From positions 1 to 49,178 of the forward strand of contig CAZJVP010000019.1 of assembly GCA_964549615.1 (NCBI GenBank): 49,178 nt of DNA, in the 5' to 3' direction. The notes below the pieces were generated by a model that saw only the letters and a list, made by a program, of their open reading frames with translations, was not told where the DNA came from and made no database searches. The stretch is from an uncultured Thermococci archaeon (GTDB lineage: Archaea > CAYQAE01 > CAYVLA01). Below are positions 5,385 through 31,165 of this stretch, piece by piece (position 1 is the first letter of the stretch; each line of letters opens with the position of its first letter). The position numbers were made by a program, and so were the translations under genes.

Positions 5385-6233
5385 ATGAAGGTCAGGGAAG
5401 TCATGACACCGGAACCCAAGTACATCGAGATACCTAGCACTCGCCAGGCGGCGCTGATCATGTTCCAGAAGCATCGCGTGACGGGCCTCCCGGTCCTGAA
5501 GGAGGGGACCAGGAAGCTGGTCGGGCTGATCACCCTCAGGGACCTCGCAAGCCACCCGGACGAGGAACAGGTGGCCATGATCATGAACAAGGACATCCCG
5601 ACCGTCGACCCCGATGATGACTTCAAGAAGGCCTGCGAGATAATGGTAAAACAGGACATCAGGCATGTGCCCGTCGTCTTCGAGGGCATGCTCGTCGGGA
5701 TTGTGACCGTCAAGGACATTCTCAGACGGGCCGTCATGGAGTTGGATCTGGAGATCTTCGTTCGCGATGTCTTCAGCGATCAGGTCACCGCCGTGTGGGA
5801 GGAAACGCCGCTGCGGGCGGCCTGGGTCATCATGAGTGCGTCAAAGTCGCACACGGTGCCAGTCGTGGACGCCAAGGGCAGGGTGGTCGGCATCATATCC
5901 GATGTGGACATCATCCGTGCTTCGGAGATAAAGGAGTCCGCCGCTACCGACATGTTGACCACCGAGACCGAGGGCGACGTGTGGTCGCTTGAGGGCAAGA
6001 ACCTGCTCTACGTGGTTAGCAAGAACCTCGTGATCCCGCAAGACAAGACGGTTCGGGACCTCATGACGAAGGAGATCGGGGTTGGGCGCCGCACACCCAT
6101 CAAGCGCTGCGCGAAGATCATGGTGACAACGGATCTCAAGGAGATCCCCGTACTGGCGCCTGAGGGGGAACTGGTTGGCGTCGTCAGGGACGTTGACTTG
6201 GTGAAGGCCCTGTTGCCTGCTTCAGCTCGTTGA
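5385..6233 (+). CDS. CBS-domain protein (two Bateman modules)
   Basis: MKVREVMT, LPV...LVGLITLRDL, VPVV...VGIISDVD repeats. Confidence 0.9.
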   Translation: MKVREVMTPEPKYIEIPSTRQAALIMFQKHRVTGLPVLKEGTRKLVGLITLRDLASHPDEEQVAMIMNKDIPTVDPDDDFKKACEIMVKQDIRHVPVVFEGMLVGIVTVKDILRRAVMELDLEIFVRDVFSDQVTAVWEETPLRAAWVIMSASKSHTVPVVDAKGRVVGIISDVDIIRASEIKESAATDMLTTETEGDVWSLEGKNLLYVVSKNLVIPQDKTVRDLMTKEIGVGRRTPIKRCAKIMVTTDLKEIPVLAPEGELVGVVRDVDLVKALLPASAR

Positions 6234-7710
6234 ACGTGACGAGCCCGTTGTACAGTCTCCACAACGCGGTGGGGACCTCGGATATGGCGATCCGGATCTG
6301 TGCCGTGGTGTCTCGATCACGGATGGTCACGGACTCGTCCTTGAGGGACTGGAAATCAACCGTTAGCGAGTAGGGACACCCGATCTCGTCGACCCTTGCG
6401 TATCTTCTTCCGATCGAGCCGGACTCATCGTAGAAACAGGCAATACCGTGGGCCTTCAGGTCGTCCTCGACCTTGCGTGCGAGCTGGGGTAGTCCCTCCT
6501 TGTTGAGAAGCGGGAAGACCGCCGCGAGAAATGGGGAGATCTGAGGAGGCAGGGAAAGATACGTGCGCTCGCCCTCCTTCCTCATCGAGACCTCAAGCAG
6601 GCAGATCAGCGTGCGATCCAAGCCGGCAGAGATCTCCCAGACGTGGGGGATGAACTTCTCCCCGTCCTCCCGCGTCCATCTCAGATCGGCCCCGCTTCCG
6701 CGCATGTGGCCGGCCAGATCGTAGTCCACCCTGTAGTTGTTGGCCACCAGTTCGACCCACCCCAGCTTGTCGGAGAGTACCTCGAAGTCCCACGTCTCCT
6801 TGGAGTAGAAAGGCCTCTCATCCTCGCCCACCTCTCTGAACCTCAGGGATTCCCTGGGGAAACCCATGCCCTCCCAGACCCTCTGAACCTCGGCGAGGTA
6901 GTAGGCTATCAGCTTGCCGCTCACAAGCTTCCTATCCAGAAGATCGGGCGGACGAAGTTCCACCAGCTCATCGGACCCCAAGGTTAGGAAGTTCATCCTG
7001 ACGTCAGCGACTTGCTCGAACTGTGGGAAATCGTCGATCTTCTCGGGGTCGAAAAAGATCTCACACTCGATCTGGCCAAACTCCCTCTGCCTGATCAGAA
7101 AATTGCGCGGCGATATCTCGTTCCTGAAAGATGCGCCTTCCTGGCAGATCCCGAAGGGAAGTTTCACCCTCATCGTCTTCGTCAGCCTGAGGTAGTCGCA
7201 GAAGATCGACTGGCAGGTCTCGGGCCTTAGGTAGCATATCTGATCCTGGAGTGGCCCCAGCATCACGCCCATCATGAGGTTGAACCTCCTGACCTTCGAG
7301 AGCTTTCCCCCACAGGAAGGACAGACGAGGCCGTGTTGCGAGATCAGTTCATCGAGCTTTGCTTCTTCCGTCCCTTCAGGGACCTGCTGTCCGGTCGCCT
7401 CCGAAACTACCTTGTCTGCCCTGTGCATCGCGTGGCATTTCTCGCATTGGGTGAGCGGGTCGCTGAAGCCGGTCAGGTGGCCGGATGACTCGAAGACGGC
7501 CTTGGGCATGATCTGGGCGCCCTGGATCTCAAGCATTCGGTTCTTCTGGACCAGATGCCGCCTCCAGAATGCCGCGATGTTCCGCCTCATCGCCTGGCCG
7601 AGCGGGCCGAAGTCGAACAATCCCGAGGGCGCCGAAGCGTAGATCTCGGATGCCGGGTAGAAGATGGCCCTCCTGAGCGCGAGGCTGGTGGCATCGTCAA
7701 ATCTGGAGAT
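6184..7710 (-). CDS. glyS: Glycine--tRNA ligase, archaeal/eukaryotic alpha2 type
   Basis: LRPETCQSIF, FRNEISPR, REFGQIE, GSIGRRYARVDEIG. The conserved N-terminus (LALRRAIFYPASEIY) extends 30 codons upstream of the track's TTG 7620 to an ATC at 7710. Confidence 0.93.
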   Translation of the reverse strand: MSRFDDATSLALRRAIFYPASEIYASAPSGLFDFGPLGQAMRRNIAAFWRRHLVQKNRMLEIQGAQIMPKAVFESSGHLTGFSDPLTQCEKCHAMHRADKVVSEATGQQVPEGTEEAKLDELISQHGLVCPSCGGKLSKVRRFNLMMGVMLGPLQDQICYLRPETCQSIFCDYLRLTKTMRVKLPFGICQEGASFRNEISPRNFLIRQREFGQIECEIFFDPEKIDDFPQFEQVADVRMNFLTLGSDELVELRPPDLLDRKLVSGKLIAYYLAEVQRVWEGMGFPRESLRFREVGEDERPFYSKETWDFEVLSDKLGWVELVANNYRVDYDLAGHMRGSGADLRWTREDGEKFIPHVWEISAGLDRTLICLLEVSMRKEGERTYLSLPPQISPFLAAVFPLLNKEGLPQLARKVEDDLKAHGIACFYDESGSIGRRYARVDEIGCPYSLTVDFQSLKDESVTIRDRDTTAQIRIAISEVPTALWRLYNGLVTFNELKQATGPSPSQRP

Positions 7711-7745
7711 AGAACCACATCCTTTGCCTGCCAGCTTCGGCGAGC

Positions 7746-7760
7746 GTTAAAAATATCTTC
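7746..7760 (-). promoter_or_regulatory. Putative BRE/TATA box of glyS
   Basis: GAAGATATTTTTAAC on the minus strand, about 40 nt upstream of ATC 7710. Confidence 0.55.
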
Positions 7761-7774
7761 GCACCAGATTTGGC

Positions 7775-8227
7775 CTAGGCCTCAAGTAGCCTCAGCGCGG
7801 CAATGTGTTTGCAGCCGCCAAGGCGCCTCCTGTACTTCCAGTCCTCGCAGGAGCACTGGAAATACCTTCTTGAGTAGCCCACCTTTTGCTTCCCCACCTT
7901 GAACCCGTCCGGATCGCGCACCACGGTTTGCTGCAGCTCCGTCGCCTGAAGGGTTCGCTGGTCCTCTGCTAGGCCCCTGATGCGCTCGAGGGAATCCTCG
8001 TCGCGATGGATGAAGAGCTCGGTGAGGTAGACGAGGAAGTAGTTGTCGGTGGTGTTGCCGAGCCTTCGCCCGTCAAGGAAGATGTCGAAACCGACAGCCG
8101 CTGGGCGAAACACCACCCGCGCGTCGCCGGCAGTGATGGAATCGGCTTCGAATCTGCGCGCCTTGAGGATCTTCCTAGCAAGCCTTGAATAGGTTCCCTC
8201 CGGTGCTGTAAGATCCTTGCCCCCCAT
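7775..8227 (-). CDS. SWIM zinc-finger protein
   Basis: C-terminal CSC...CKH motif (FQCSCEDWKYRRRLGGCKHIAA). Confidence 0.75.
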   Translation of the reverse strand: MGGKDLTAPEGTYSRLARKILKARRFEADSITAGDARVVFRPAAVGFDIFLDGRRLGNTTDNYFLVYLTELFIHRDEDSLERIRGLAEDQRTLQATELQQTVVRDPDGFKVGKQKVGYSRRYFQCSCEDWKYRRRLGGCKHIAALRLLEA

Positions 8228-8240
8228 CTGGCCGCACGCT

Positions 8241-8750
8241 TCACCCAGGCCGTTTGCCCGCCGGCTTTGTCGTTGTGCGGGTAATGATGAGTATGAGGCC
8301 GAAGACGAAAAGCCCCGTGAGCATGAATCCAAGGTTCACGGGATCGATGATCGGCTTCTTCGATCGCGGCGGTTCGGGCCGACCGGGAATCGTGAATGAG
8401 ATCTGCTCGTGGGCGGCTATGTCGCCGCTGTCCTCCAAGCCCGCTCCTAGCCTTTCGACGACGTAGAAATCGAAGGTGTAGTTGCCCCCCTCAAGGAAGA
8501 AGTAACCGAGATCAACCCTGGGTTCGACCCTGGGATACAAAAGCACCCCAGCCATGGCACCCGAGATTTCGATCCTGAGGCTCATGTTCGTCCATTCTTC
8601 CTGCGGGGCGATCCGCAGGGTGAGCTGGGCGTCCCCCGGCTCGGTCAGATTCTCGTACCCGGAGAGGTTGAAGAACTGGCACCAGGAGGGTTGGGTGACG
8701 ACCATCACCGGGACCATGAGGAGGGCGAACCGACCCAGGGTGAGCTTCAA
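8241..8750 (-). CDS. Hypothetical exported protein with C-terminal TM anchor
   Basis: Signal-peptide-like N-terminus, several N-x-S/T sequons, C-terminal hydrophobic helix with basic tail. Confidence 0.65.
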   Translation of the reverse strand: MKLTLGRFALLMVPVMVVTQPSWCQFFNLSGYENLTEPGDAQLTLRIAPQEEWTNMSLRIEISGAMAGVLLYPRVEPRVDLGYFFLEGGNYTFDFYVVERLGAGLEDSGDIAAHEQISFTIPGRPEPPRSKKPIIDPVNLGFMLTGLFVFGLILIITRTTTKPAGKRPG

Positions 8751-30784: not shown

Positions 30785-31165
30785 CTACCTGCCCGATATG
30801 GGAGCCCTCTCGTCGGTGAGGCACATTAGGTAGCTCTGCATCCTGACGGTGTACCTCTGGTAGCCCAGTATGAACTCCCACAACCCCTTCTGCTTTCGAC
30901 CTAGAACGAGTATGTGCAGCCACAATAGCACGTGGGCGACCGCGGCCACCACGGACCACAGCAGGTAGACGATGTAGAGAACGATCCCGTAGAAGAACCG
31001 CACGACGAGCTCCGTTCTCTTGGACTTCTCAGCGTAGTCCGCGTCCAGGCGGATCGGATACATGGCGAACTGCTTTCCGTCTGCCGGGGCGACAGGCCTG
31101 CCGCAGTGGCTGCAGAACGAGAAATCGTCTGGGATGTCCCTGCCGCAGAACCGACAGTACGTCAG
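30785..31165 (-). CDS. Zinc-ribbon plus DUF4389 membrane protein
   Basis: An in-frame YCRFCG...FCSHCG ribbon upstream of ATG 31063 begins at CTG 31165 after GGTGAT; DUF4389-like SRxELxxR...YLxxLTDERxP. Confidence 0.8.
   Translation of the reverse strand: MTYCRFCGRDIPDDFSFCSHCGRPVAPADGKQFAMYPIRLDADYAEKSKRTELVVRFFYGIVLYIVYLLWSVVAAVAHVLLWLHILVLGRKQKGLWEFILGYQRYTVRMQSYLMCLTDERAPISGR

Follow-up and report, generated by a model that had tools for sequence, protein, structure and literature searches.

The stretch of DNA analysed here, referred to as the window, is the 49,178-nucleotide contig CAZJVP010000019.1 (assembly GCA_964549615.1) of an uncultured Thermococci archaeon from a hot spring, and its minus strand carries glyS, the gene for glycyl-tRNA synthetase (GlyRS). 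The glyS frame is open from directly after the stop codon TAA 7749-7747 down to the stop codon at 6184-6186. Read in order on the minus strand, the codons that follow the TAA give RSPKLAGKGCGS, isoleucine (ATC 7710-7708), SRFDDATSLALRRAIFYPASEIYASAPSG, and leucine (TTG 7620-7618). A CTG at 7734-7732 is also in the glyS frame, and GGATGTGG stands directly before the ATC. There is no ATG, GTG, or TTG in this frame between the TAA and TTG 7620. A first-pass annotation of the window had reported the missing canonical start, and our reading of the minus strand agrees with it in every detail. The same annotation had proposed that glyS initiates at the ATC, and the comparisons described below indicate that translation of this single glyS gene probably starts at ATC 7710-7708.

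The glyS translation matches the GlyRS equivalog profile NF003211 with 485.4 bits (cut-off 312) and TIGR00389 with 458.3 bits (cut-off 243.3), and the class II core (PF00587) and anticodon-binding (PF03129) domains are precomputed on its public protein model, P0002. The source genome is 3.21 Mb in 104 contigs and 99.5% complete, and glyS is the sole GlyRS gene in it; the three other profile matches are other synthetases with E-values of 1e-5 or worse. Positions 2-453 of the 454 in NF003211 correspond to residues 17-494 of the stop-to-stop translation, and the N-terminal segment before motif 1 is included in this match. Profile position 2 falls on the Asp four codons past ATC 7710-7708, and residue 3 of the T. 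thermophilus GlyRS structure (1ATI) pairs with residue 2 of the ATC-started protein. The profile match from position 2 agrees with the earlier claim that a conserved GlyRS N terminus is encoded upstream of TTG 7620. A start-less stretch of 42 codons can easily arise by chance, and of the 2287 likely genes called by codon usage in this genome, 194 have one. What goes beyond chance is the conserved protein sequence inside the start-less stretch and not the length of the stretch.

The phylum of the source genome is represented by five species genomes in the collection, and a metagenome scan for glyS returned 78 loci; the aligned codon was located in every locus that carries the N terminus. Seven distinct loci with the N terminus, at 66-84% protein identity, make up the family set (L036 and L040 are duplicates of L035, and in G001, a genome of the same genus, the contig ends within the glyS locus). 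Five of the seven have ATC as the aligned codon, namely the window (L001), L038, L039, L005 (genome G003), and L007 (genome G002), and an in-frame canonical start upstream of the ATC was found in none of these five. The two nearest relatives, L034 (84%) and L035 (82%), have ATG at the aligned codon, giving M-SRFDD. ATG also occupies the homologous codon in 13 of the 13 outgroup loci printed (~50-59% identity over the N-terminal 120 residues), a count that covers these loci and excludes the remaining outgroup rows of the alignment. Alignment of glyS from sister genomes had been put forward as a check on the ATC, and it pairs ATC 7710-7708 codon for codon with the ATG starts of relatives. The codons past the ATC vary synonymously between loci (TCC/TCT/TCA, AGA/AGG/CGC, and TTT/TTC), and the translated region upstream of it is unrelated between loci. 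Synonymous variation on one side and an unconserved peptide on the other argue that selection on the protein begins at the codon after the ATC.

The ATC follows a Shine-Dalgarno (SD)-like motif (Table 1) whose duplex with the 16S rRNA 3' end, the anti-SD GGATCACCTCCT, has an energy of -10.7 kcal/mol. The aligned spacer of SD 5-mers in this genome peaks at 6-10 nt, measured on 686 open reading frames (ORFs) with an unambiguous first canonical start. The sequence GTGRT is kept at -8 to -4 in seven of seven family loci. Duplex energies range from -7.4 to -12.5 kcal/mol at the five ATC loci and are -6.3 kcal/mol at the two family ATG loci, and the mean for the 13 outgroup loci is -2.4 kcal/mol. 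Coming from few, related lineages, these values do no more than hint that the weaker codon goes with a stronger SD.

The position of an A/T-rich, TATA-like box sets the family apart from the outgroup. Preceded by GAAG, the box stops 35-39 nt short of the start in all seven family loci and ~23-25 nt short of the ATG in the 13 outgroup loci. The centre of an archaeal TATA box is near -26, and for a leaderless mRNA the box lies ~25 nt upstream of the start. By this geometry the family glyS mRNA is predicted to have a leader of ~11-16 nt that contains the SD, and the outgroup mRNA would be leaderless. A leaderless glyS mRNA in the family was considered and rejected by the same geometry, given the distance of the box from the start. 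The transcription start predicted from the box would place CTG 7734 outside the transcript, which is consistent with the earlier view that TATA spacing favours the ATC.

These features suggest how initiation at the ATC may proceed. An own TATA-type promoter ~36 nt upstream would yield a glyS mRNA whose leader measures some 11-16 nt. Within this leader, GGAUGUGGU would pair with the 16S rRNA 3' end and set the AUC in the P site, where the ordinary initiator Met-tRNA (anticodon CAU) would read it with a third-position mismatch, and GlyRS would begin Met-Ser-Arg-Phe-Asp-Asp. We infer the transcription start, decoding by the initiator tRNA, the N-terminal Met, and a lower translation efficiency. 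The assignment of the start to ATC 7710 is supported by homology to the ATG of relatives, conservation of the codon in the family, protein conservation from the next codon on, and an SD-like motif at the preferred spacing, and on these points the first-pass proposal stands.

Table 1. Features of the glyS locus in the window, and genes elsewhere in the source genome with a putative near-cognate start
Feature	Position	Strand	Description
glyS, proposed coding sequence	6184-7710	minus	508 codons + stop; predicted class II alpha2-type glycyl-tRNA synthetase
ATC, proposed near-cognate start codon of glyS	7708-7710	minus	aligned with the ATG of relatives; present in five of seven family loci
SD-like motif GGATGTGGT	7714-7722	minus	aligned spacer to ATC 7 nt; pairs with the 16S 3' end
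A/T-rich TATA-like box ATATTTTTAA	7747-7756	minus	GAAG before it; includes the in-frame stop TAA 7749-7747; putative promoter element
TTG, first in-frame canonical codon	7618-7620	minus	30 codons inside the conserved N terminus; rejected as start
ATG of the public gene model	7507-7509	minus	441 amino acids, MPKAVFESS start; 67 codons downstream of ATC (P0002, 87% of query covered)
Out-of-frame ATG 7720-7718	7697-7720	minus	7-codon ORF MWFYLQI*; not part of glyS
Upstream gene	7775-8332	minus	stop 64 nt before ATC; C-terminal CxC...CxH motif; same neighbourhood in G002 and G003
ABC ATPase			domain from residue 41, first canonical codon 103; putative CTG start
MtrH(-like)			domain from residue 21, first canonical codon 71; putative CTG start
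Radical-SAM zinc ribbon			domain from residue 7, first canonical codon 57; putative ACG start
TrkA_N (TrkA-like)			domain from residue 3, directly after stop; putative ACG start
Gfo/Idh/MocA			domain from residue 26, first canonical codon 52; putative CTG start
S-adenosylmethionine (SAM) methyltransferase			domain from residue 31, first canonical codon 68; putative CTG start
Thymidylate kinase			domain from residue 10, first canonical codon 24; putative CTG or ACG start
uS19			archaeal uS19 profile starts at CTG, position 2 next after CTG; putative CTG start
GH4-like gene			putative ACG start behind SD-like motif (read from printed codons)

The identity of the bases at 7708-7710 was checked on assembled contigs. 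An independently built contig from run X1, which is probably the source sample, is identical to the window over 7400-8000 at a word depth of 40. The contig from run X2, a hot-spring metagenome from another study, is ~96% identical and has 23 differences over 7400-7912, with none listed at 7708-7710; the difference at 7719 abolishes the out-of-frame ATG 7720-7718. Runs X3 and X4 hold only parts of the stretch at <95% likeness, and nothing was drawn from them. The base at 7708 had been singled out for confirmation, and the ATC holds in the X1 contig and meets no listed difference in the X2 contig.

The public protein collection contains 14 clusters of the family. Nine of these are N-terminally truncated models, that of the window among them, two have Ile at the site with the start called 3 or 14 codons upstream, and three have Met at the site; the start codons of clusters P0004-P0015 were deduced from the called proteins only. 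In a tree of 17 sequences from the family and 8 of the 26 from the outgroup, Met occurs at the site at three unconnected points, and every one of them adjoins lineages with ATC. A history with a single basal change to ATC and three reversions to ATG takes fewer changes than one in which ATC was gained independently at least six times, and ATC is therefore the likely ancestral state in the family. The codon looks old and long-lived, having been replaced by ATG about three times.

The likely genes of the source genome were next ranked for coding signal ahead of their first canonical start. There are 1034 with at least 12 codons before this start, and glyS is 18th among them. A Pfam domain begins upstream of the first canonical start in seven of the 18 ORFs tested (Table 1). 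A CTG or ACG lies 7-9 nt behind an SD-like motif in all seven of these genes as well as in the genes for uS19 and a GH4-like protein. SD duplex energies are available for uS19 and six of these seven genes and range from -11.6 to -16.1 kcal/mol except for that of thymidylate kinase at -6.8 kcal/mol; the SD motifs of the SAM methyltransferase and GH4-like genes were read from printed codons only. The nine genes lie outside the window on contigs C97, C100, C45, C30, C52, C101, C72, C81, and C36. Comparison with relatives shows that the uS19 CTG aligns with ATG, ATG, and TTG in three of them and that the TrkA ACG aligns with GTG, ATG, TTG, and ATG. At least eight further genes, uS19 included, thus appear to need a CTG or ACG start for their conserved N terminus.

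Three other start-codon cases outside the window were rejected when Pfam showed them to be gene fragments, each probably from a broken or split gene. Contig C14 carries a C-terminal piece of a NAD-dependent epimerase (profile 80-240), C95 a C-terminal piece of a UvrD-like helicase (UvrD_C 285-347), and C86 a C-terminal piece of a UPF0236 protein.

The test for enrichment of near-cognate codons behind an SD required an exact 6-mer SD at a spacer of 6-9 nt and a minimum of 8 codons ahead of any canonical start, and candidates were filtered by codon usage. The count was 13/368 for near-cognate codons versus 16/2109 for other codons (odds ratio 4.8, p = 1e-4). CTG accounted for 5/75, ACG for 5/42, ATT for 2/19, and ATA for 1/29, and there were none for AAG and AGG. 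A loose duplex threshold (-8 kcal/mol) applied genome-wide gave an 18% background and no signal, and a 9-mer SD score left only 8 matches.

Several of these results weigh against initiation at the ATC or against a general tolerance of near-cognate codons. The Pfam-tested ORFs were chosen by eye as 18 of the 48 top-ranked, and their SD and codon assignments were made after seeing the sequences. The enrichment is modest, weakens under looser settings, and is gone with a 5-mer SD and no codon-usage filter (odds ratio 1.07), and ATC itself scores 0/54 at the 6-mer SD, the glyS SD being imperfect. An unrelated archaeal genome, G007 (41% GC, 1.60 of 1.62 Mb covered), gave no enrichment, with 0/231 versus 1/1476 for the 6-mer and an odds ratio of 1.67 (p = 0.23) for the 5-mer, a comparison of little power in that an SD stands at only 11/718 of its ATG codons. 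The three ATG replacements show that the ATC is not required, and no run on record as RNA is among the listed holders of the stretch. The initiation machinery likewise offers no cause. The genome encodes aIF1 (SUI1, 81 bits), and its initiator tRNA is normal, with A1:U72, three G-C pairs in the anticodon stem, and the anticodon CAT. Missing or odd machinery was rejected as a cause on this ground, and with both components present, the tolerance cannot be traced to the machinery. The aIF1 of S. solfataricus is reported to reject an AUU model mRNA in vitro (PMC4705826); against this background, the conservation of an AUC on an essential gene of an archaeon comes as a slight surprise.

Several of the top-ranked ORFs in G007 (L207-L286) also look coding well ahead of their first canonical start, one of them over 72 codons that immediately follow a stop. 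Judging by these ORFs, near-cognate starts may be widespread in archaea.

The first-pass annotation had offered two reasons for the ATC, regulation and relaxed initiation. Under the first, selection would keep the ATC at glyS in particular, where the weakness of this start or its sensitivity to a factor would serve as a regulatory set point like the infC AUU under IF3. The codon is ATC and never ATT or ATA in five of the seven family loci despite scrambled third positions in the neighbouring codons, and the starts of uS19 and TrkA in the same genomes turn over among ATG, GTG, TTG, CTG, and ACG. The stronger SD duplexes at the ATC loci than at the family ATG loci and the precedent of infC (PMC4705826) point the same way. 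We nevertheless consider glyS-specific regulation unlikely. About three independent replacements by ATG have occurred within the family, and the lineages are few and related, such that retention of the ATC could be inheritance. Folding of the seven family loci from -16 to +60 against mononucleotide shuffles revealed neither a shared fold nor exceptional stability of the RNA at the start (z between -0.94 and +0.26). Unrelated genes of the genome also use what appear to be near-cognate starts, and for this reason tolerance of CTG and ACG fits better than a glyS-specific device. Relaxed initiation is thus the better fit of the two reasons and regulation finds less support, although neither is proven.

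The glyS ATC would then be one case of a wider tolerance of near-cognate codons (CTG, ACG, and ATC) behind a strong SD. A broader picture can be sketched tentatively, and we hold it to be somewhat less probable than its negation. The family may have relaxed start selection on SD-led mRNAs, with at least ~0.4% of genes, glyS and uS19 among them, beginning with AUC, CUG, or ACG. Starts would turn over quickly among ATG, GTG, TTG, CTG, ACG, and ATC between sister genomes, and a strong SD would offset the mismatch even though aIF1 and the initiator tRNA are normal. The glyS AUC would be as old as the family itself and might act as a set point for the level of the synthetase. The natural series of ATC and ATG alleles with differing SD strength offers material on the trade-off between SD pairing and aIF1 stringency.

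Near-cognate starts as a kind are already known in prokaryotes, and our literature searches found no published description of an ATC start of an archaeal gene. The AUU start of infC, which encodes IF3, is the known near-cognate start in bacteria described in PMC4705826. In yeast, non-AUG initiation of aminoacyl-tRNA synthetase genes is reported for GRS1 (UUG) and ALA1 (ACG) (PMC2909995). Ribosome profiling of Haloferax volcanii is reported to place ~30% of putative alternative start sites at near-cognate codons, a set that its authors put aside (PMC7261190), and 5% of the new small ORFs of Methanosarcina mazei are reported to start with CTG (PMC11456600).

Each of these systems resembles the glyS case in part. 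We take infC and glyS to share an essential role in translation, a conserved AUH in place of AUG behind an SD, and a third-position mismatch with the initiator tRNA. They differ in that infC is bacterial, uses AUU, and has a demonstrated autoregulation by IF3, whereas glyS is archaeal (aIF1/aIF2) and uses AUC, a codon that ATG has replaced several times in the family. Yeast GRS1 is likewise a glycyl-tRNA synthetase gene translated from a non-AUG codon, according to the source cited above, but the yeast codon is an extra upstream start for a mitochondrial isoform, and the archaeal ATC would be the only start, with no second isoform or organelle. The reports on H. volcanii and M. mazei indicate that archaeal ribosomes initiate one base away from AUG. 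Their sites are alternative starts or belong to small ORFs, whereas those considered here would be the sole starts of full-length housekeeping genes and are conserved between genera. A conserved AUC start on a housekeeping gene would add to the few hints of near-cognate tolerance in archaeal initiation.

The main consequence of an ATC start would be for annotation. Gene finders limited to ATG, GTG, and TTG would truncate an essential GlyRS and likewise other genes of the genome, uS19 included. Such truncation errors would be passed on to protein databases and would affect structure predictions and completeness estimates for uncultured archaea.

A start downstream of the ATC is very improbable. 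Translation from TTG 7620 or ATG 7509 would leave the GlyRS short by 30-67 N-terminal residues and make the upstream frame non-coding. This is what standard gene finding returns, in the form of the 441-residue public model, and TTG 7620 is the first canonical codon of the frame. The 30 codons upstream of the TTG nevertheless fit the GlyRS profile from position 2 and the solved GlyRS from residue 3, the family shares them at the protein level with synonymous codon changes, and it is their codon-usage score that gives glyS its rank of 18th among 1034 ORFs. The position of TTG 7620 is moreover occupied by CTG, TTG, ATA, ATT, ATA, and ATC in the six other distinct family loci.

Even less room is left for a start at the out-of-frame ATG 7720 or at the conserved GTG (-8) followed by a frameshift, or for the ATC being an assembly error or a recent lesion of an ATG. 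ATG 7720 does lie near the predicted mRNA 5' end, and the GTG at -8 is present in all seven family loci. This GTG, however, belongs to the complement of the anti-SD, and ATG 7720 is missing in five of the six other family loci (L035 alone keeps it) and in X2. No slippery sequence or heptamer is common to the family loci, the overlapping out-of-frame ORFs are of unequal length (7, 10, 14, and ~40 codons), and selection on the glyS frame right after the ATC leaves no room for a shift. An error or lesion is opposed by the base confirmed at depth 40 and by the presence of ATC in independent assemblies. The first-pass annotation had also listed CTG 7734-7732 as a candidate, which would lengthen the N terminus by 8 residues, and although this codon is in the glyS frame and CTG starts appear to be used elsewhere in the genome, its probability is next to negligible: it has no SD before it and is itself upstream of the glyS SD, it lies ~13 nt after the TATA-like box and probably outside the transcript, and the CTG-to-ATC peptide is unconserved, with relatives lacking a CTG there.

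The window contains a second likely non-canonical start, an ACG at 31160-31162 on the minus strand that opens an ORF to 30785 and lies 7 nt behind GGTGATC. The ORF would encode (M)YCRFCG...CSHCG, a double CxxC located upstream of the first canonical ATG at 31063. An NCBIfam scan of this ORF (31160-30785) found no family.

The gene upstream of glyS (7775-8332) ends in a conserved C-x-C ... DWKYRR..GGCKHI, a motif that we take to be a SWIM zinc finger, and it adjoins glyS in G002 (L007) and G003 (L005) as well. The glyS gene of the family has its nearest GlyRS outgroup (50-56% identity; loci L116-L193) in Iainarchaeum, Woesearchaeota, Aenigmatarchaeota, and Micrarchaeota (DPANN). In G004, a genome of the same class, GlyRS is longer (581 amino acids) and only 38% identical. 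The closer relationship to DPANN than to a member of the same class suggests that the family acquired glyS through transfer.

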